From assembly GCF_045037415.1 (NCBI RefSeq), contig NZ_CP173438.1: a DNA stretch of 64,000 nt; one strand, given 5' to 3'. This document shows, in pieces, positions 18,451-31,738 of this stretch. Below the pieces are notes generated by a model. That model saw only the letters and a program-made list of their open reading frames with translations, was not told the origin of the DNA and searched no databases. The position numbers were made by a program, and so were the translations under genes. Origin of the DNA: Escherichia coli. GTDB taxonomy: Bacteria; Pseudomonadota; Gammaproteobacteria; Enterobacterales; Enterobacteriaceae. Every line of letters starts with the position of its first letter. Position 1 is the first letter of the stretch.

Positions 18451-19191
18451 ATGTCTATAGACTGGAACTGGGGTATTTTTTTACAACAAGCCCCGTTCGG
18501 CAACACCACCTATCTTGGTTGGATCTGGAGTGGCTTTCAGGTGACGATCGCTTTGTCGATCTGCGCCTGGATTATCGCTTTCCTCGTCGGTTCATTTTTC
18601 GGCATTTTACGTACCGTTCCAAACCGTTTTCTCTCCGGTCTGGGTACGTTGTATGTCGAACTGTTCCGCAACGTGCCGTTGATTGTGCAATTCTTTACCT
18701 GGTACCTAGTGATCCCGGAGCTGCTGCCAGAGAAAATCGGCATGTGGTTTAAGGCAGAGCTGGATCCCAATATTCAGTTTTTCCTTTCATCCATGCTCTG
18801 CCTGGGGCTGTTTACCGCCGCCCGTGTTTGCGAACAGGTACGCGCAGCTATTCAGTCGCTGCCGCGTGGGCAAAAAAATGCCGCGCTGGCGATGGGTCTG
18901 ACGCTACCGCAGGCTTACCGCTACGTACTGCTGCCTAATGCTTATCGCGTTATCGTCCCGCCGATGACCTCAGAGATGATGAACCTGGTGAAAAACTCCG
19001 CCATCGCCTCGACTATCGGTCTGGTGGATATGGCGGCGCAGGCGGGTAAATTGCTCGATTACTCGGCCCACGCCTGGGAGTCGTTTACCGCCATCACGCT
19101 GGCGTATGTATTGATTAACGCTTTTATCATGCTGGTGATGACGCTGGTTGAACGTAAAGTTCGCCTGCCCGGCAACATGGGGGGCAAATAA
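18451..19191 (+). CDS. gltJ: glutamate/aspartate ABC transporter permease
   Basis: 246-aa polytopic ORF; synteny. Confidence 0.95.
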
Positions 19192-19865
19192 TGTACGAGT
19201 TTGACTGGAGTTCCATTGTTCCTTCCCTGCCATATCTGCTCGACGGGCTGGTGATCACGCTGAAAATCACCGTCACGGCAGTGGTGATTGGTATTTTGTG
19301 GGGCACCATGCTGGCGGTGATGCGCTTGTCCAGCTTTGCGCCCGTAGCGTGGTTTGCCAAAGCCTACGTTAACGTATTCCGCTCGATTCCTTTAGTTATG
19401 GTTTTGCTGTGGTTTTACCTGATCGTACCGGGTTTTCTGCAAAACGTGCTGGGATTATCACCCAAAAATGATATCCGTTTAATTTCGGCGATGGTGGCGT
19501 TTTCGATGTTTGAAGCGGCCTACTATTCAGAGATTATCCGTGCTGGTATTCAAAGTATTTCTCGTGGTCAGTCGAGCGCCGCGCTGGCGTTGGGAATGAC
19601 TCACTGGCAGTCGATGAAACTGATTATTCTGCCGCAGGCGTTCCGCGCGATGGTGCCGCTGTTGCTCACTCAGGGCATCGTACTGTTTCAGGATACCTCA
19701 CTGGTGTATGTGTTATCTCTGGCCGATTTCTTCCGTACCGCCTCAACCATTGGTGAGCGTGATGGTACGCAGGTTGAGATGATCCTGTTTGCCGGATTTG
19801 TTTATTTCGTTATTAGCCTTAGCGCGTCGTTGTTGGTCAGCTACTTGAAAAGAAGGACAGCATAA
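19191..19865 (+). CDS. gltK: glutamate/aspartate ABC transporter permease
   Basis: 224-aa ORF, start overlaps gltJ stop. Confidence 0.95.
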
Positions 19866-20590
19866 TGATTACCCTGAAAAATGTTTCAAAATGGTATGGT
19901 CACTTTCAGGTGCTGACCGACTGCTCAACCGAAGTGAAAAAAGGCGAAGTTGTGGTGGTTTGCGGCCCGTCTGGTTCCGGCAAATCAACGCTGATTAAAA
20001 CCGTCAACGGCCTCGAACCGGTGCAGCAAGGTGAAATCACCGTCGATGGCATCGTGGTTAACGACAAGAAAACCGATCTGGCGAAACTGCGTTCCCGCGT
20101 CGGGATGGTGTTTCAGCATTTCGAGCTGTTCCCCCATCTGTCGATTATCGAAAACCTGACCCTGGCGCAGGTGAAAGTGCTTAAACGCAATAAAGCGCCG
20201 GCTCGTGAAAAAGCATTGAAATTGCTGGAGCGCGTCGGGCTTTCCGCACATGCCAATAAGTTTCCGGCGCAGCTTTCCGGCGGCCAGCAGCAGCGTGTGG
20301 CGATCGCTCGCGCATTGTGCATGGATCCTATTGCCATGCTGTTCGACGAACCAACGTCGGCGCTGGATCCGGAGATGATCAACGAAGTGCTGGACGTGAT
20401 GGTCGAACTGGCGAACGAAGGAATGACGATGATGGTGGTGACCCACGAAATGGGCTTTGCCCGTAAAGTGGCGAATCGGGTGATCTTTATGGACGAGGGT
20501 AAAATTATCGAAGACTCGCCGAAAGACGCTTTCTTCGATAATCCGAAATCGGACCGCGCAAAAGACTTCCTCGCAAAAATCCTGCATTAA
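19865..20590 (+). CDS. gltL: glutamate/aspartate ABC transporter ATP-binding protein
   Basis: 241-aa ORF with Walker [10 protein letters not shown] and ABC signature LSGGQQQR. Confidence 0.96.
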
Positions 20591-20707
20591 TCACTCTGGC
20601 GCGCATACTCAATTGCGCGCCATCTCACGCTTTCTCGTTTCGTCCCTCGTATCTGTTACATCCCGGCGTTACCCTTGTCGCAAAGAAACACACAACAAGG
20701 AGCAACA

Positions 20708-21643
20708 ATGGCACTGCCAATTCTGTTAGATTGCGACCCAGGTCATGACGACGCTATCGCAATAGTTCTCGCCCTCGCCTCACCAGAGCTTGATGTCAAA
20801 GCAATTACGTCTTCCGCCGGAAACCAGACACCAGAAAAAACCTTACGCAATGTTCTGCGTATGCTGACCTTGCTTAATCGCACCGATATTCCGGTAGCAA
20901 GCGGTGCGGTAAAACCGTTAATGCGTAATTTGATTATTGCGGACAACGTGCACGGCGAAAGCGGCCTGGACGGCCCGGCATTGCCGGAACCGGCATTTGC
21001 ACCGCAAAACTGCACGGCAGTGGAGCTGATGGCGAAAACGCTGCGTGAAAGTGCGGAACCTGTCACCATTGTTTCTACCGGACCGCAAACTAACGTTGCC
21101 TTGCTGCTCAATAGCCACCCGGAACTGCATAGCAAAATTGCCCGTATCGTGATTATGGGCGGCGCAATGGGGCTTGGTAACTGGACGCCTGCGGCTGAAT
21201 TTAATATTTACGTTGACCCGGAAGCGGCAGAAATTGTCTTCCAGTCAGGAATTCCGGTGGTGATGGCCGGTCTGGATGTTACTCACAAAGCACAAATCCA
21301 CGTTGAAGACACTGAGCGTTTCCGCGCGATTGGCAACCCTGTTTCAACCATTGTTGCCGAACTGCTGGATTTCTTCCTCGAATATCACAAAGACGAAAAA
21401 TGGGGCTTTGTCGGCGCACCACTGCATGACCCATGCACCATCGCCTGGCTGTTGAAACCGGAGTTGTTTACCACTGTTGAGCGCTGGGTTGGCGTGGAAA
21501 CACAAGGGAAATATACCCAGGGTATGACAGTTGTTGATTATTATTATCTGACTGGCAATAAACCGAATGCCACCGTAATGGTCGATGTTGATCGTCAGGG
21601 CTTTGTTGATTTACTGGCTGATCGTCTGAAATTTTACGCTTAA
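20708..21643 (+). CDS. rihA: pyrimidine-specific ribonucleoside hydrolase
   Basis: ORF track 20675-21643; start at [15 protein letters not shown] (nucleoside hydrolase DxDxxxDD motif), 311 aa. Confidence 0.94.
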
Positions 21644-21726
21644 CATACGTCATTGATTAAGATCACCACGCATTACCTGGGTGGTCTTAATCTGGTTATC
21701 TCTTTTTCTTTCAAGATATAAATGCA

Positions 21727-23397
21727 ATGGATAATGCAGAACTTGCTATTGGTATCGATCTCGGTACTACCAATAGTTTAATTGCCGTCTGGAAAGACGG
21801 TGCCGCGCAATTAATTCCAAATAAGTTCGGTGAATATTTAACACCATCCATAATTAGCATGGATGAAAATAATCATATTTTAGTCGGAAAACCGGCTGTA
21901 TCACGGCGGACTTCGCATCCGGATAAAACGGCAGCGTTATTTAAACGTGCAATGGGCAGTAATACCAACTGGCGGTTAGGCAGCGACACATTTAACGCGC
22001 CAGAACTGTCCTCTTTGGTATTACGCTCATTAAAAGAAGATGCCGAAGAATTTCTGCAACGTCCGATTAAAGATGTGGTGATCTCCGTTCCTGCTTATTT
22101 CAGCGATGAACAACGCAAGCATACCCGTTTAGCAGCAGAGTTAGCCGGGCTAAATGCAGTGCGCCTGATTAATGAGCCAACGGCAGCCGCGATGGCGTAT
22201 GGCCTGCATACGCAGCAAAATACCCGCTCGCTGGTTTTTGATCTCGGTGGCGGCACGTTCGACGTTACGGTGCTCGAGTACGCCACGCCGGTGATTGAAG
22301 TTAACGCCTCCGCTGGCGATAACTTCCTCGGTGGCGAAGATTTTACCCATATGCTGGTCGATGAGGTTTTAAAACGCGCGGAAGTTGCCAAAACCACGCT
22401 TAACGATAGCGAACTGGCAGCCTTGTACGCCTGCGTGGAAGCGGCAAAATGTAGCAATCAATCGCCAATGCACATTCGCTGGCAGTACCAGGATGAAATG
22501 CGGAAATGCGAATTTTACGAGAACGAACTGGAAGATTTGTGGTTGCCGCTGCTCAATCGCTTGCGAGTGCCGATTGAACAGGCGTTGCGCGATGCACGTC
22601 TGAAGCCGAGTCAAATCGACAGTCTGGTGCTGGTTGGCGGCGCGTCACAAATGCCGCTGGTGCAGCGAATCGCAGTGCGTCTGTTTGGCAAATTACCGTA
22701 TCAAAGTTACGATCCGAGCACCATTGTCGCGCTGGGCGCAGCAATCCAGGCCGCCTGCCGCTTACGCAATGAAGATATTGAAGAAGTGATCCTCACTGAT
22801 ATTTGCCCTTACTCGTTGGGTGTTGAAGTTAACCGTCAGGGCGTATCCGGCATTTTCTCGCCGATTATTGAACGAAACACCACAGTACCGGTGTCGCGTG
22901 TAGAAACTTATTCAACCATGCACCCGGAACAGGATTCAATTACGGTTAACGTCTATCAGGGAGAAAACCACAAAGTTAAAAATAACATTCTTGTGGAATC
23001 CTTCGATGTGCCGTTGAAGAAAACCGGGACTTATCAGTCGATTGATATTCGCTTTAGTTATGATATCAACGGCTTGCTTGAAGTTGACGTGCTTCTGGAA
23101 GACGGCAGCGTTAAGTCCAGAGTGATTAATCACAGTCCGGTAACATTGAGCGCGCAGCAGATTGAAGAGAGTCGGACGCGGTTATCCGCATTGAAAATTT
23201 ATCCGCGCGATATGCTCATCAATCGCACCTTTAAAGCCAAACTGGAAGAGTTGTGGGCGCGGGCGCTGGGTGACGAGCGAGAAGAGATTGGTCGGGTGAT
23301 CACCGATTTTGATGCGGCGTTGCAGTCAAACGATATGGCCCGCGTGGATGAAGTTCGGCGGCGGGCGAGCGATTATTTAGCCATTGAGATCCCATAA
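21727..23397 (+). CDS. hscC: Hsp70-family chaperone HscC
   Basis: 556-aa ORF, Hsp70 ATPase motifs (IGIDLGTTNS, DLGGGTFD). Confidence 0.95.
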   Translation: MDNAELAIGIDLGTTNSLIAVWKDGAAQLIPNKFGEYLTPSIISMDENNHILVGKPAVSRRTSHPDKTAALFKRAMGSNTNWRLGSDTFNAPELSSLVLRSLKEDAEEFLQRPIKDVVISVPAYFSDEQRKHTRLAAELAGLNAVRLINEPTAAAMAYGLHTQQNTRSLVFDLGGGTFDVTVLEYATPVIEVNASAGDNFLGGEDFTHMLVDEVLKRAEVAKTTLNDSELAALYACVEAAKCSNQSPMHIRWQYQDEMRKCEFYENELEDLWLPLLNRLRVPIEQALRDARLKPSQIDSLVLVGGASQMPLVQRIAVRLFGKLPYQSYDPSTIVALGAAIQAACRLRNEDIEEVILTDICPYSLGVEVNRQGVSGIFSPIIERNTTVPVSRVETYSTMHPEQDSITVNVYQGENHKVKNNILVESFDVPLKKTGTYQSIDIRFSYDINGLLEVDVLLEDGSVKSRVINHSPVTLSAQQIEESRTRLSALKIYPRDMLINRTFKAKLEELWARALGDEREEIGRVITDFDAALQSNDMARVDEVRRRASDYLAIEIP

Positions 23398-23402
23398 ACA
23401 CG

Positions 23403-23440
23403 GCTACCGGATGCGGCGTAAACGCTGCATCCGGCATCGG
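23403..23440. repeat. REP-like palindrome
   Basis: ccggatgcggcgtaaacgctgcatccgg. Confidence 0.45.
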
Positions 23441-23456
23441 CGCAAAAAACACATCG

Positions 23457-24907
23457 TCAACTAAACAACATCGCGATTTTGCCGAGAGCATAACCTATCA
23501 CCAGCACCGTTAAACTGATTTTGATAATGCTGGTAATGCTCTGTGGTTTTTCATCCTCATCATTTATTTCTTCATGGTTTTCAGGTGTTGGCTCATCGAC
23601 ATCTTCATCCTCCGGCTCGAGCTTCACTTTCGTCAACAGCATTCGGGTGATAATGGTTCTAATGGATGTGCCTCTCCGCGTTCCAGCCGCGCGTCCAGAC
23701 GGGCCAGCATCTCTTGTTTCGGAAACGCTTCAAGTACTACCTGTTCCGCTACCCGATACAAATCCAGTAACGGTGAATCTTGCTCTGTCTCGCTACCGAC
23801 TCTCGATTTCCACCACGCCCATGCTTTGCGTTTGAAGAATAACGACTCAATAAACGATTGACCTAACGGCGATAATTTTCCGCTATGTAAAATCTCCGCC
23901 CATAACAGCCGCGTCCGGGCGCTCTCACCAGGAACATATTTCAACGGCTTACCTTGCGCATCTACCATGCTCCGCGCTTCGATAACCATCACTAATAACG
24001 CGAAATAATCCGGGCAATGACGCTTGCTCCACTGCAACAACAAATTATCGGCTTGTGTAGATGGGTAACTTTCCCGGTACGCGCAGAGATCGGCAAGCAG
24101 GCTTTCCCCCTCGCCGCAGTACAACCGTTGTGCGCACTGGTAATAACGGGCATCTTCGCTTTCTGGTTCTTCCGCTTGCCACTGTTGAGCGACAGGAATG
24201 AGTTCCGCCATACCTGTTTGCACCGAGCTGTACCAGCGCAACAGTTTGCGATGCAACTTCGCATCATCAGGAATGAACCACGGACCTTCCATCGCCAAAA
24301 ACGCAGTGACATAGTCAGGATGGTAACGGCAGCAACGTTCCAGCGAGAAGTAATACTCAACCGTCTGGTTCTGCAACGCAACGGGATATTCCAGAAGGCT
24401 AAGGAAATCGAAACAATCACCAGCCTGAATGGCCTCAAGAAAAGCCTCCCTTTCTTCCTCATCTATTCCTTCGCAGTCATTAAACGAATGCCAGTTCAAA
24501 CGCTCTGCCAGCAAAGAAGCACAATTTAATGAAAGATATCGCGCTTCTATAGCGATTGCACACAGCGGCCAGCGTAATTGATCGACATCCTCCATGTTCC
24601 AGGTATTTAATTGCTGAATAAATTTCTGCCAGGCGGAGGGCTGAAAACGATCATTTTCTGAATCCAGTAATGCCCTGAATACACGTAGTATTTCATGCTC
24701 AGTGGCAGCATCTTTTTCTTCATCATCTGCTTCCTCGACAGGATTTACCGCCAGTCGCAGCGCCTCTTCATAGGCCTGGCGTAATGCTTTAAACCCTTGT
24801 GGATCGGTTTCGGGATGACATAACGGTAAGCGAGCAAGATAAGCCTGGCGGATAATGTCTATTTGCGTCGTGCTTTCAATTTCGAGGATTTGCCAACATG
24901 TTTTCAT
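23457..24907 (-). pseudogene. djlC: J-domain co-chaperone DjlC (YbeV) with an apparent -1 frameshift near 23633-23642
   Basis: ORF 23633-24907 (424 aa, J-domain-like N-terminus) and ORF 23457-23642 (61 aa, acidic linker plus C-terminal TM anchor) overlap by 10 nt in different frames; combined span 1451 nt is not a multiple of 3 (expected 1452 for the 483-aa protein). Confidence 0.65.
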
Positions 24908-25611
24908 AGGTCGCTCACATCCTTAAGCGTTACCGGGCATTCAGGCTGGACAGTTAATGGCTGCCAGGGAAGCGTGGCATAGAAACGGTCGCTTCCCGCT
25001 GCCAGCTCTTCGAACATCCGACTCCCGGCGCTATCGTATTTGTACAGGGTTAGCGCCTCGCGTAGCGAAGCGTTGTCTTCGCACTGAGAAGATTGCCAGT
25101 AGAGACGCCCTAACGAATAGGCAGAAAAATAGTGCATCCAGCTGTGATAGTAATGGTGTGCTCGTATATAGACGCGCGATTGCAGCCATAAACTCTCGTC
25201 TTCCGTCAACCACTTGTTGAGCACACCAACCCGTGATAAAAAACCCATCCGCACATAATCCCAGGCTTTGATTCCCCCTTCCCCACAACACATAGCGGTT
25301 TGGGCAACGAATTGGGTATAAATCAACCCTCTCTCCGAGCCGCCAGCAATTAATGCTTTCCACTCTTCAGGGGAAGAGCGATGCCATGTCAGATATAAGC
25401 CAGCTAAATCATTGGCATGACCATCATCGGTCATCTGATAAATAGTCTGAATTAAATCATCACGATTATTTATTCCCCAGGATGATGAGAGATCGAATTC
25501 TTTTATCCCGGTATACATTTTTGGCGAGTCATGCGCGGGCTTGCAACCCTGATTAAGTATTTCCATGGGCGTAGAAAGCGCAAAAAGAAGATATTGTTCT
25601 TCCTTATTCAT
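24904..25611 (-). CDS. ybeU: DUF1266-family protein YbeU
   Basis: 235-aa ORF; stop overlaps djlC start. Confidence 0.85.
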
Positions 25612-25712
25612 TTGTTAATAATCCCTTAAGTGCATTAACTGACTACTTTTTTATTATTGATGAGTATAAACTTGACGCTTTCAAAATAAAAAGAAAATCG
25701 AAGCATTCACAC

Positions 25713-26267
25713 ATGAATAAAAAATTAATGTATATATTCGCAATATTTATAGTTGCAGCAATAACCTGTATTAGCCAACCCAAGAAAACGACGTTGCGTG
25801 ATAAAGCCATGGCGAATTATGCCTTTGATTATTTAAGCTCACCGGGCAGTCTTCCATTCACCACGGCAGCCACGGAGCTTTCCGCGATTCATGGTCACTC
25901 AACGTCGCAATATCGCCTTGGAGAATTTTATCTTCATGGTAGCGACGGTAAACCACTGGATTATACACAGGCGAGATACTGGTATGAGCAATCAGCAGAA
26001 CAGGAAAATCCACGCGCGCAAAGTAAACTGGGGTGGATCTACCTCAAAGGTCTGGGGGTCAAACCCGACACCCGTAAAGCAATTCTCTGGTATAAGGAAG
26101 CAGCTGAACAAGGGTATGCTCATGCTCAATATACTTTGGGTTTGATCTACAGAAATGGCTCAGGTATTAATGTTAACCATTATGAATCTCAAAAATGGTT
26201 AAAACTGGCCGCCAAACAACATTACAAAAATGCGGAAAGATTACTTGCCGGGCTTTCCGCACATTAA
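25713..26267 (+). CDS. ybeT: Sel1-repeat protein YbeT
   Basis: 184-aa ORF with N-terminal hydrophobic segment and Sel1/TPR-like repeats ([21 protein letters not shown]...). Confidence 0.85.
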
Positions 26268-26343
26268 CGTCGACTGTCACCCGAACAGATGGAGTATTTT
26301 CCCTATCAAACCAGCAAAGATAAAAATATAGAAAATAATTTTA

Positions 26344-26742
26344 ATGATGCCCAGACAGCCTGGCCCACCATCGTCAACGGGCATTGGCTGCGGTTGCGGC
26401 TCCGATAACGCTGGCGAAGGGGTGGACCAGGACTATAAGCAAGCGATGTACTGGTATCTGAAGGCTGCTGCTCAGGAAAGCGTCGGCGCTTACGTCAACA
26501 TCGGTTATATGTATAAACACGGACAAGGCGTTGAGAAAGATTATCAGGCCGCCTTTGAATAGTTTACGATAGCCGCTGAATGCAATGACGCCACAGCCTG
26601 GTATAACCTGGCCATTATGTATCACTACGGAGAAGGAAGACCTGTCGATCTCCGACAGGCTCTCGACTTGTATCGTAAAGTTCAGTCATCCGGAACCAGA
26701 GATGTCAGTCAAGAAATTCGTGAGATTGAAGATTTACTGTAG
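26344..26742 (+). pseudogene. ybeQ: 3' remnant of a Sel1-repeat gene (ybeQ-like) with in-frame amber stop at 26560
   Basis: Sel1-type repeats read in one frame (...AMYWYLKAAAQESVGAYVNIGYMYKHGQGVEKDYQAAFE*FTIAAECNDATAWYNLAIMYHYGEGRPVDL...); no credible N-terminus. Confidence 0.6.
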
Positions 26743-26811
26743 AGATAAAAACAAGGGCCGGGGAATTTCATTCGGCCCATATTCTCTTTATTGCTGTGCG
26801 AAATCAGACTA

Positions 26812-27294
26812 TTACGGCTCAAACGGGCGTCTCTGGAACTGGTCATGACCACATTTAGGGCATAGCGTCAGCACTTCCGGTGTGTAGATCGGGAGATGGA
26901 AGTGACATTTCTCGCAGACCAGATTTCCCAGCCCTACCACTTCTCCGCTGTGATAAACCCCATGATGATTGAGGTCCTGGAAAACTTCGCGCCATTCAAG
27001 CTGCGTTTTATCGGTGATGTCTGCCAGCTCCTGCCACAAGCTTTCTTTAATCACCCGCATAAAGACGCTGTCAGACTCTTCTTTCAGGCTCTCTTCATAG
27101 CTCATGGCGAACTCTTCCAGGTCACGTCTGACAGCTCGCGTCAGCTCATCGACCTCGGTTCGCGTTAACTCCCCTGTTTTTATTACGCGCTCGCGCGCCT
27201 GTTCCACCAGTGCGTCGATATCACGTTCGCCATTGCGCAGGCGTTCGCTCAGTGACGCGACCAGTTCACGGTAATATTGAGCAACCTTGTTCAT
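26812..27294 (-). CDS. ybeL: DUF1451 zinc-ribbon protein YbeL
   Basis: 160-aa ORF with C-terminal CxxC...CxxC. Confidence 0.9.
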   Translation of the reverse strand: MNKVAQYYRELVASLSERLRNGERDIDALVEQARERVIKTGELTRTEVDELTRAVRRDLEEFAMSYEESLKEESDSVFMRVIKESLWQELADITDKTQLEWREVFQDLNHHGVYHSGEVVGLGNLVCEKCHFHLPIYTPEVLTLCPKCGHDQFQRRPFEP

Positions 27295-27528
27295 CGTTTC
27301 ATCTCCCGGGTCGTTAACTGACTATAATAATAGACGTTCTTTGTTCCTTGCTTTGCTAATACGCCCACAAACTCTGTAAATTAATGTATGAATAATCCGG
27401 GCATCATTTCAACGTCGAGTGCGCGAAAGGCTGTTTTGACGCGGGCGTTTGGGCTATGCTATGCGGATCTGAAAAACCACATCAACGCTACATTTGTAGC
27501 CGTATTGAAAACAGGACCACTGGCTGCC

Positions 27529-30111
27529 ATGCAAGAGCAATACCGCCCGGAAGAGATAGAATCCAAAGTACAGCTTCACTGGGATGAGAAGCGCACATTT
27601 GAAGTAACCGAAGACGAGAGCAAAGAGAAGTATTACTGCCTGTCTATGCTTCCCTATCCTTCTGGTCGACTACACATGGGCCACGTTCGCAACTACACCA
27701 TCGGTGACGTGATCGCCCGCTACCAGCGCATGCTGGGCAAAAACGTTCTGCAGCCAATCGGCTGGGACGCATTTGGTCTGCCTGCGGAAGGCGCGGCGGT
27801 GAAAAACAACACCGCGCCAGCACCGTGGACGTACGACAACATCGCGTATATGAAAAACCAGCTCAAAATGCTGGGCTTTGGTTATGACTGGAGCCGCGAG
27901 CTGGCGACCTGTACGCCGGAATACTACCGTTGGGAACAGAAATTCTTCACCGAGCTGTATAAAAAAGGCCTGGTATATAAGAAGACTTCTGCGGTCAACT
28001 GGTGCCCGAACGACCAGACCGTACTGGCGAACGAACAAGTTATCGACGGCTGCTGCTGGCGCTGCGATACCAAAGTTGAGCGTAAAGAGATCCCGCAGTG
28101 GTTTATCAAAATCACAGCTTACGCTGACGAGCTGCTCAACGATCTGGATAAACTGGATCACTGGCCAGACACCGTTAAAACAATGCAGCGTAACTGGATC
28201 GGTCGTTCCGAAGGCGTGGAAATCACCTTCAACGTTAACGACTATGACAACACGCTGACCGTTTACACTACCCGCCCGGACACCTTTATGGGTTGTACCT
28301 ACCTGGCGGTGGCTGCGGGTCATCCGCTGGCACAGAAAGCGGCGGAAAATAATCCTGAACTGGCCGCCTTTATTGACGAATGCCGTAACACCAAAGTTGC
28401 CGAAGCTGAAATGGCGACGATGGAGAAAAAAGGCGTCGATACTGGCTTTAAAGCGGTTCACCCATTAACGGGCGAAGAAATTCCCGTTTGGGCAGCAAAC
28501 TTCGTATTGATGGAATACGGCACGGGCGCAGTTATGGCGGTTCCGGGTCACGACCAGCGCGACTACGAGTTTGCCTCTAAATACGGCCTGAACATCAAAC
28601 CGGTTATCCTGGCAGCTGACGGCTCTGAGCCAGATCTTTCTCAGCAAGCCCTGACTGAAAAAGGCGTGCTGTTCAACTCTGGCGAGTTTAATGGTCTTGA
28701 CCATGAAGCGGCCTTCAACGCCATCGCCGATAAACTGACTGCGATGGGCGTTGGCGAGCGTAAAGTGAACTACCGCCTGCGCGACTGGGGTGTTTCTCGT
28801 CAGCGTTACTGGGGCGCGCCGATTCCGATGGTGACGCTGGAAGACGGTACCGTAATGCCGACCCCGGACGACCAGCTGCCGGTGATCCTGCCGGAAGATG
28901 TGGTGATGGACGGCATTACCAGCCCGATTAAAGCAGATCCGGAGTGGGCAAAAACTACCGTTAACGGTATGCCAGCACTGCGTGAAACCGACACTTTCGA
29001 CACCTTTATGGAGTCCTCCTGGTACTATGCGCGCTACACTTGCCCGGAGTACAAAGAAGGTATGCTGGATTCCAAAGCGGCTAACTATTGGCTGCCGGTG
29101 GATATTTACATTGGTGGTATCGAACACGCCATTATGCACCTGCTCTACTTCCGCTTCTTCCACAAACTGATGCGTGATGCAGGCATGGTGAACTCTGACG
29201 AACCAGCGAAACAGTTGCTGTGTCAGGGTATGGTGCTGGCAGATGCCTTCTACTATGTTGGTGAAAACGGCGAACGTAACTGGGTTTCCCCGGTTGATGC
29301 TATCGTTGAACGTGACGAGAAAGGCCGTATCGTGAAAGCGAAAGATGCGGCAGGCCATGAACTGGTTTATACCGGCATGAGCAAAATGTCCAAGTCGAAG
29401 AACAACGGTATCGACCCGCAGGTGATGGTTGAACGTTACGGCGCGGACACCGTTCGTCTGTTTATGATGTTTGCTTCTCCGGCTGATATGACTCTCGAAT
29501 GGCAGGAATCCGGCGTGGAAGGGGCTAACCGCTTCCTGAAACGTGTCTGGAAACTGGTGTACGAGCACACAGCAAAAGGTGATGTTGCGGCACTGAACGT
29601 CGATGCGCTGACTGAAGATCAGAAAGCGCTGCGTCGCGATGTGCATAAAACTATCGCTAAAGTAACCGATGATATCGGCCGTCGTCAGACCTTCAACACC
29701 GCAATTGCGGCGATTATGGAGCTGATGAACAAACTGGCGAAAGCACCGACCGATGGCGAGCAGGATCGCGCCCTGATGCAGGAAGCGCTGCTGGCGGTAG
29801 TCCGTATGCTTAACCCGTTCACCCCGCACATCTGCTTCACGCTGTGGCAGGAACTGAAAGGCGAAGGCGATATCGACAACGCGCCGTGGCCGGTTGCTGA
29901 CGAAAAAGCGATGGTGGAAGACTCCACGCTGGTCGTGGTGCAGGTTAACGGTAAAGTCCGTGCAAAAATCACCGTTCCGGTGGACGCAACGGAAGAACAG
30001 GTTCGCGAACGTGCTGGCCAGGAACATCTGGTAGCAAAATATCTTGATGGCGTTACTGTACGTAAAGTGATTTACGTACCAGGTAAACTCCTCAATCTGG
30101 TCGTTGGCTAA
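27529..30111 (+). CDS. leuS: leucyl-tRNA synthetase
   Basis: ORF track 27388-30111; true start [15 protein letters not shown] and KMSKS class I motifs; 860 aa. Confidence 0.97.
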
Positions 30112-30125
30112 GCGCGGGAGGAAGC

Positions 30126-30707
30126 GTGCGATATCTGGCAACATTGTTGTTATCTCTGGCGGTGTTAATCACCGCCGGGTGTGGCTGGCATCTGCGTGAC
30201 ACCACGCAGGTTCCTTCCACTATGAAAGTCATGATCCTGGACTCAGGCGATCCGAACGGGCCATTAAGCCGTGCGGTGCGTAACCAGTTACGTCTGAATG
30301 GTGTCGAGTTGCTTGATAAAGAAACCACGCGTAAGGACGTTCCATCCCTGCGTTTGGGTAAAGTGAGCATCGCGAAAGATACCGCATCGGTATTCCGTAA
30401 CGGTCAAACAGCAGAGTATCAGATGATCATGACGGTGAATGCGACCGTGTTGATCCCCGGCCGTGACATCTACCCGATTAGCGCCAAGGTCTTCCGTTCG
30501 TTCTTCGATAACCCGCAAATGGCGTTAGCGAAAGATAACGAACAAGACATGATCGTAAAAGAGATGTACGACCGTGCTGCCGAACAGCTGATTCGTAAGC
30601 TGCCAAGCATCCGTGCTGCAGATATTCGTTCCGACGAAGAACAGACGTCGACCACAACGGATACTCCGGCAACGCCTGCACGCGTCTCCACCACGCTGGG
30701 TAACTGA
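30126..30707 (+). CDS. lptE: LPS assembly lipoprotein LptE
   Basis: 193-aa ORF with lipobox LITAGC. Confidence 0.95.
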
Positions 30708-31738
30708 TGATTCGGTTGTACCCGGAACAACTCCGCGCGCAGCTCAATGAAGGGCTGCGCGCGGCGTATCTTTTACTTGGTAACGATCCTCTGTTATTGC
30801 AGGAAAGCCAGGACGCTGTTCGTCAGGTCGCTGCGGCGCAAGGGTTCGAAGAACACCACACTTTTTCCATTGATCCCAACACCGACTGGAATGCGATTTT
30901 TTCGTTATGCCAGGCCATGAGCCTGTTTGCCAGTCGACAAACGCTATTGCTGTTGTTACCCGAAAACGGACCGAATGCGGCGATCAATGAACAACTTCTC
31001 ACACTCACCGGACTTCTGCATGACGATCTACTGTTGATCGTCCGCGGTAATAAATTAAGCAAAGCGCAAGAAAATGCCGCCTGGTTTACTGCTCTTGCGA
31101 ATCGCAGCGTGCAGGTGACCTGTCAGACACCGGAGCAGGCTCAGCTGCCCCGCTGGGTTGCTGCGCGCGCAAAACAGCTCAACTTAGAACTGGATGACGC
31201 TGCAAATCAGGTGCTCTGCTACTGTTATGAAGGTAACCTGCTGGCGCTGGCCCAGGCACTGGAGCGTTTATCGCTACTCTGGCCGGACGGCAAACTGACA
31301 TTACCGCGCGTTGAACAGGCGGTGAATGATGCCGCGCATTTCACCCCTTTTCATTGGGTTGATGCTTTGTTGATGGGAAAAAGTAAGCGCGCGTTGCATA
31401 TTCTTCAGCAACTGCGTCTGGAAGGCAGCGAACCGGTTATTTTGTTGCGCACATTACAACGTGAACTGTTGTTACTGGTTAACCTGAAACGCCAGTCTGC
31501 CCATACGCCACTGCGTGCGTTGTTTGATAAGCATCGGGTATGGCAGAACCGCCGGGGCATGATGAGCGAAGCGTTAAATCGCTTAAGCCAGCCGCAGTTA
31601 CGTCAGGCCGTGCAACTCCTGACACGAACGGAACTCACCCTCAAACAAGATTACGGTCAGTCAGTGTGGGCAGAGCTGGAAGGGTTATCTCTTCTGTTGT
31701 GCCATAAACCCCTGGCGGACGTATTTATCGACGGTTGA
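30707..31738 (+). CDS. holA: DNA polymerase III delta subunit
   Basis: 343-aa ORF; synteny downstream of lptE. Confidence 0.95.

Follow-up and report, generated by a model that had tools for sequence, protein, structure and literature searches.

A clean 2.8-kb deletion beside hscC leaves the 3' ends of djlB and ybeQ as gene remnants in a lineage of Escherichia coli

The hscC island in K-12 and in the window

E. coli carries a specialised Hsp70 system formed by HscC and the J-proteins DjlB and DjlC (Kluck et al. 2002, reviewed in PMC8215388). DjlB and DjlC are paralogous, tail-anchored proteins, 50% identical, that have been assigned to HscC, whose ATPase is stimulated by DjlC; strains lacking hscC, or lacking both J-protein genes, are reported to be sensitive to Cd2+ (PMC8215388). 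The K-12 MG1655 record gives the gene order leuS-ybeL-ybeQ-ybeR-djlB-ybeT-ybeU-djlC-hscC-rihA-gltL. It bears out what an earlier, sequence-only reading of the DNA studied here had stated, namely that K-12 has two paralogous triplets next to hscC (ybeT-ybeU-djlC and ybeQ-ybeR-djlB, the latter b0644-b0646).

Two reduced arrangements of this island serve as further points of comparison. E. coli B (BL21-derived B95.deltaA; L005 4912-8207) likewise has a single triplet beside hscC, and its ybeQ, too, contains a nonsense codon. However, it differs from the DNA studied here in that its reduction involved homologous recombination between djlB and djlC, in that ybeT-ybeU was lost, and in that its ybeQ nonsense codon is Gln171->stop; the resulting hybrid gene, annotated as frameshifted, is djlB-like over its first ~100 nt and djlC-like over the rest. 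In most other B2 strains (UTI89, NRG 857C, APEC O1:K1:H7), the same chromosomal site shows the same trend toward loss, but there the island, about 8 kb long, is missing altogether, and a spacer of only 44 bp that contains a GCCGGATG...CATCCGGC palindrome lies between rihA and ybeL (L003 8955-9004), whereas the DNA studied here retains hscC and one triplet.

Here we analyzed a 64,000-nucleotide stretch of E. coli contig NZ_CP173438.1 (the window). Its ORF list gives the order gltL-rihA-hscC-djlC-ybeU-ybeT, followed by 544 bp without a long ORF (26268-26811) and then by ybeL-leuS (Table 1). The remnants within these 544 bp are orthologous to and collinear with K-12 ybeQ-ybeR-djlB and lie between the same flanking genes, ybeT and ybeL, but the window lacks 2,807 bp of the K-12 arrangement and has an amber codon in what remains of ybeQ. 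Relative to the HscC-DjlB/DjlC system, the window keeps hscC and djlC, whereas DjlB is gone and DjlC would lack its tail anchor if the frameshift in its gene is real. The sequence-only reading had counted one remaining copy of the triplet; ybeT, ybeU and djlC are all present, but djlC is frameshifted near 23657, and the triplet is not intact.

Table 1. Coordinates of the features of the reduced hscC island and its right-hand edge in the window
Feature	Position	Strand	Description
hscC	21727..23397	+	island Hsp70; intact, 556 aa; ORF with NCBIfam Hsp70-type matches; 96.7% nt identity to K-12
djlC	23457..24907	-	J-protein of the surviving triplet; frame shifted by a 1-nt deletion
ybeU	24904..25611	-	DUF1266 protein of the surviving triplet; intact, 235 aa
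ybeT	25713..26267	+	Sel1-repeat protein of the surviving triplet; intact, 184 aa; 98.7% identical to K-12 ybeT
djlB 3' remnant	26277..26404	-	last 128 nt including the stop codon; tail-anchor region only
deletion junction	26404..26405		2,807 bp of the K-12 arrangement (L001 4909-7715) missing
ybeQ 3' remnant	26405..26742	+	final 338 nt with the stop codon; about three Sel1 repeats; lacks its own start codon
in-frame amber codon	26560..26562	+	TGG->TAG (Trp->stop) within the ybeQ remnant
chimeric ORF, 72 aa	26344..26562	+	from the ORF list; runs antisense to the djlB remnant, across the junction and in the ybeQ frame to the amber codon
ybeQ-ybeL spacer	26743..26811		69 bp, retained; 100% identical to K-12; terminator-like hairpin at 26755-26778
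ybeL	26812..27294	-	intact right-hand neighbour; ORF; NCBIfam PRK11032 at 299.7 bits against a cut-off of 183

YbeU matched Pfam DUF1266 (PF06889) over the full length of the model (positions 2-175 of 175; E = 4.4e-45). NCBIfam contained no specific models for YbeU or DjlC, and for YbeT and the ybeQ remnant it returned only sub-threshold matches to other Sel1/TPR proteins. An Rfam scan of 19000-31000 found no RNA family. Promoter- and terminator-like sites in the region occurred in numbers expected by chance, the retained hairpin between ybeQ and ybeL being the only one that stood out.

The 2,807-bp deletion and its two remnants

BLAST of window positions 19000-31000 against the K-12 locus (L001) returned two blocks, one pairing window 19120-26404 with 15001-7716 at 97.0% and the other pairing window 26405-31000 with 4908-313 at 98.4%. 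The two sequences are collinear except for one clean 2,807-bp gap at 26404|26405. This is the outcome of the K-12 alignment that the sequence-only reading had proposed, and it places the Sel1-repeat fragment in line with ybeQ. The segment missing from the window comprises the 5' 640 nt of ybeQ (640/978 nt, the 5' two-thirds of the gene), the ybeQ-ybeR spacer, all of ybeR, and the 5' 1,300 nt of djlB, which is 91% of that gene. The breakpoints are the same when the window is compared with strain DC71 (2,807 bp) and with Escherichia sp. MOD1-EC7003 (2,806 bp).

What is left of the two genes accounts for most of the 544 bp, which consist of the 9-bp ybeT/djlB spacer, 128 nt of djlB, 338 nt of ybeQ and the 69-bp ybeQ-ybeL spacer. 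Window 26268-26404 (137 nt) corresponds to L001 7852-7716 with 0 mismatches. The djlB remnant within it is therefore 100% identical to K-12, and its translation gives the last 41 residues of DjlB; it is collinear with the 3' end of K-12 djlB and convergent with ybeT, which identifies it as the djlB orthologue. This fragment on the minus strand had been overlooked in the sequence-only reading, which took the 544 bp to hold only the 3' part of ybeQ and both ybeR and djlB to be absent. For ybeR that description is correct, as the gene is wholly missing, but djlB is truncated, with its 3' 128 nt still in place.

The ybeQ remnant corresponds to L001 4908-4571 at 97.0% identity and is continuous with ybeL and leuS. 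Its 112-residue conceptual translation contains three matches to Sel1 (Pfam PF08238; i-Evalues 4.7e-7, 8.3e-6 and 8.4e-5). Thus, the Sel1-repeat frame with an in-frame amber codon that had been noticed from the letters is the 3' end of ybeQ. The remnant reads ...AAFE*FTIAAEC..., with TAG where K-12, E. coli B, DC71 and the outgroup read TGG, and the amber codon is present in all six of the deletion carriers that were aligned. With its 5' end and start codon gone and a premature stop in what remains, the fragment is a pseudogene. We are highly confident that a clean loss of about 2.8 kb took place in this lineage and left two dead gene ends.

These features can be arranged into a simple sequence of events. 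The ancestor of the lineage carried a full K-12-type island between rihA and ybeL, made up of hscC and of the triplets djlC-ybeU-ybeT and djlB-ybeR-ybeQ. One deletion of about 2.8 kb, illegitimate and unguided by repeats, then joined mid-ybeQ to djlB 128 nt short of its 3' end, taking out ybeR and the 5' parts of both flanking genes and leaving two fragments that are non-functional pseudogenes. The ybeQ fragment may have acquired its Trp->amber change and one missense change later, or may already have carried them. The deletion probably happened once, and it is fixed in the ST131 clone as well as in a few B2 sublineages closely related to it.

Decay of the ybeQ remnant since the deletion is real but minimal. 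Ten positions differ from K-12, of which six are K-12-specific or shared polymorphisms. Judged against K-12, E. coli B, DC71 and the outgroup, the remaining four are derived changes of the deletion lineage, namely W->* at 26561, K->I at 26570, and synonymous changes at 26595 and 26668. The four changes in 338 nt amount to 1.2% lineage-specific change, compared with 1.4% for rihA, 1.3% for hscC and 0.8% for leuS. Measurable acceleration of decay is thereby ruled out, since the remnant lies within the 0.8-1.4% range of its intact neighbours; the non-synonymous share in the remnant is higher (2/4), on numbers too small to test. The amber codon and the deletion always occurred together in the carriers examined, and the amber codon occurred in no intact allele examined, a pattern that fits either order of the two events.

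The junction also created an open reading frame, and one might suppose that the deletion made a new functional gene of 72 aa, with 20 novel residues followed by about 1.5 Sel1 repeats and possibly co-transcribed with ybeT. The frame does start with ATG and spans the junction in frame, it lies just 3' of ybeT on the same strand, and it is kept in all carriers. However, the carriers are near-clonal, so retention says little, and both SNPs found among them in the novel 5' part are non-synonymous, with codons assigned by reading the sequence. Moreover, no promoter-like site lies upstream on the plus strand, such sites occur in the region at chance frequency in any case, and the end of the frame is a nonsense mutation within a Sel1 repeat. 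We consider a new gene extremely unlikely, and we see no indication that the 72-aa frame is more than a product of chance.

Polarity of the change and nature of the breakpoints

Either loss in this lineage or gain in K-12 could in principle produce the difference between the two arrangements, and the sequence-only reading had favoured deletion and decay over a duplication specific to K-12. That preference is supported by the truncated genes, the outgroup, the age of the paralogues and the lineage-specific substitutions. Loss is indicated, first, because the junction cuts short two genes, each at a point that is collinear with its full-length counterpart. Second, both triplets occur in K-12 order in Escherichia sp. 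MOD1-EC7003, which represents a GTDB species other than E. coli proper, and this again argues for loss. Its DjlB, DjlC and YbeT are 87-90% identical to those of K-12, compared with about 99% for LeuS. The comparison covers this one outgroup, the single useful locus among the matches listed in a DjlB search of genome contigs. Third, the duplication that gave rise to the two triplets is ancient, as amino-acid identity between paralogues is only 59% for YbeR/YbeU, 50% for DjlB/DjlC and 35% over 127 residues for YbeQ/YbeT, whereas orthologues within the species share about 97% nucleotide identity.

The opposite polarity, in which a one-triplet state is ancestral and K-12-like strains recently gained the second triplet by duplication or insertion, was as open as the other beforehand, and the locus is clearly variable, given that some 18% of genomes are without the whole island. 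A recent gain, however, would not account for truncated djlB and ybeQ 3' ends at exactly collinear positions in the window, for both triplets in an outgroup Escherichia, or for paralogues that at 35-59% identity are far older than divergence within the species. The remnants and the outgroup refute it, and the probability that we would assign to it is practically nil.

The outgroup MOD1-EC7003 carries two extra genes between ybeL and ybeQ (L010 5741-8079), one encoding a third, distant DjlB/DjlC-like protein (27-29% identity) with a hydrophobic C-terminal tail and the other a 321-aa protein with a signal-peptide-like N-terminus. In addition, a 384-bp contig filed as Caballeronia mineralivorans (NZ_AEJF01000274.1; L011) encodes E. 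coli YbeR/DjlB at 98-100% identity and is most likely E. coli contamination of the Caballeronia assembly.

The sequence-only reading had suggested looking for short direct repeats at the deletion endpoints, but there are none in K-12, DC71 or the outgroup. In the undeleted alleles of these three genomes, microhomology at the junction is 0 bp, no direct or inverted repeats were found within 25 nt of both breakpoints, and no k-mer of 7 nt or longer is common to both breakpoints within 25 nt; the sole shared k-mer is a 6-mer with a 28-nt offset. The lack of repeats and microhomology, together with breakpoints in non-paralogous sequence on opposite coding strands, argues for an illegitimate deletion rather than recombination between paralogues. 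We infer this from the absence of repeats, and the term names no specific mechanism.

Recombination between paralogues is known to occur at this locus, as the djlB/djlC hybrid of E. coli B shows, and the copy missing here might have been lost in the same way. For the junction at 26404|26405, however, this explanation is refuted by the absence of any shared k-mer of at least 7 nt and of microhomology, and by breakpoints that lie in non-paralogous sequence on opposite coding strands; we see virtually no chance that it is correct. Draft assemblies can collapse paralogous repeats, but the likelihood that the missing triplet is such an artefact is negligible, given an identical junction in 565 independently assembled complete genomes, its position joining the antisense djlB 3' end to mid-ybeQ rather than paralogous sites, and paralogues that at ~66% nucleotide identity are too divergent to collapse.

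Distribution of the deletion and the state of the surviving triplet

The data show directly that the deletion exists, in which direction the change ran and how it is distributed in the population. Across 5,426 complete RefSeq E. coli genomes, a 120-bp junction probe detected the identical junction in 565, all at 99% identity or higher, and in 567 one uninterrupted piece covered 80% or more of the 1.8-kb region. The full island, scored as 80% or more of the deleted segment, was present in 3,715 genomes. In a further 963, comprising UTI89-type B2 strains and others, rihA directly abuts ybeL, an empty site with no hscC island. By difference, about 180 genomes are in other states, such as IS insertions, the arrangement of E. 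coli B or an unrelated cassette with a DUF6985 gene.

Several lines of evidence connect the deletion with ST131. Records under the labels 'O25b:H4-ST131 strain 2822' and 'O25:H4 strain 18044' are among those with the junction. Over 13.8 kb, the window is identical to strain AVS0935 except for one gap, and comparison with ST131 strain 2822 added one further mismatch across nine segments (about 10.4 kb). The flanks of the window are 99.3-99.6% identical to an empty-site (UTI89-type) B2 strain, as compared with 96.4-98.3% to K-12. Judging from the labelled carriers and this flank identity, the deletion appears to be a marker of the ST131 branch of phylogroup B2. Three carriers, A42 (isolated from a marsupial), SCU-124 and isolate 538, have flanks that are 0.1-0.3% different from those of the window, yet they share with it the junction, the amber codon and every other substitution in the remnant; the deletion is therefore older than the separation of ST131 from these sister lineages. 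The intact-island genome closest to the island allele of the window is no more than 97.3% identical to it, and the island is as diverged from K-12 (96.5-96.7%) as the left flank is (96.4%), values that fit vertical descent of the island within B2.

More generally, the rihA-ybeL interval (the equivalent of window 21644-26811) is a multi-state site. Some carriers of the deletion, such as NR3838 and Z0117EC0013, have an additional IS1 insertion within the reduced island (the equivalent of window 23400-27400). Strain F8111-1SC3 has at the rihA-ybeL site an unrelated 1.3-kb cassette that encodes a DUF6985 protein and two hypothetical proteins (L004 7740-9016) and keeps about 16 bp of island-type edge beside ybeL.

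Automated annotation has already registered the two fragments. PGAP calls both of them pseudogenes in every carrier examined (for example, AVS0935 QJB05_RS25145 and QJB05_RS19980), with the labels 'hypothetical protein, incomplete, missing N-terminus' and 'ybeQ, internal stop; incomplete; missing N-terminus'. It does not give the first fragment the name djlB, nor does it describe the deletion as a single event. A literature search found no paper that links ST131 to ybeQ, ybeR or djlB or that discusses the deletion. The deletion is a case of gene loss of the ordinary, lineage-specific kind.

The surviving J-protein gene is itself altered in the window. A 1-nt deletion near 23657 (GAAACC->GAACC) shifts the djlC frame, which stops at 23633, and the C-terminal tail anchor is lost. 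This gap is the sole difference from AVS0935 djlC across 1,452 nt and is also the one gap in the 13.8-kb comparison with that strain, and it occurs in none of 4,322 complete genomes that hold the segment (best match 99.5%). A frameshift common to other genomes is thereby rejected, and the gap may be either a private mutation or a sequencing error. The match of window DjlC to Pfam DnaJ (PF00226) is weak (E = 0.03, residues 4-47), and the J-domain motif in its N-terminal part (24800-24907) is HPE, not the canonical HPD; K-12 DjlB and DjlC also read HPE. A role for DjlC as HscC co-chaperone would follow from the literature (PMC8215388).

Two further features of djlC were noted. A 201-bp stretch near its 3' end (23557-23757), which covers the acidic linker that precedes the tail anchor, varies unusually strongly among E. 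coli genomes, being 90-95% identical in 3,450 genomes and 80-90% identical in 307, versus about 97% for the rest of the island. In its 5' third, ST131-type djlC differs from A42, isolate 538 and SCU-124 at eight shared positions within 24556-24821 (nt 87-352), with no differences from these strains in the adjoining ybeU; the cluster may be a small recombination patch.

Given what has been reported for DjlC and HscC (PMC8215388), tolerated loss of one copy would not be surprising, and the loss was probably tolerated because DjlC, YbeU and YbeT can substitute for DjlB, YbeR and YbeQ. The losses in the ST131 branch, in most other B2 strains and in E. coli B might together reflect selection against this membrane-associated Hsp70 module in some niches rather than neutral loss, or the 72-aa frame might be expressed as a new micro-protein, but nothing apart from the pattern of distribution speaks for either, and we think both very unlikely.

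In summary, the deletion can serve as a clean marker, present or absent, of the ST131 branch of B2, and it shows that the HscC co-chaperone triplets are singly dispensable. The locus has been reduced independently at least three times, by the deletion on the ST131 branch, by the formation of the hybrid gene in E. coli B and by loss of the whole island in other B2 strains, which is mildly useful for the study of the poorly understood HscC/DjlB/DjlC/YbeQRTU module. ST131 represents a natural djlB-ybeR-ybeQ knockout, and the genome from which the window comes may be without any membrane-anchored HscC J-protein.
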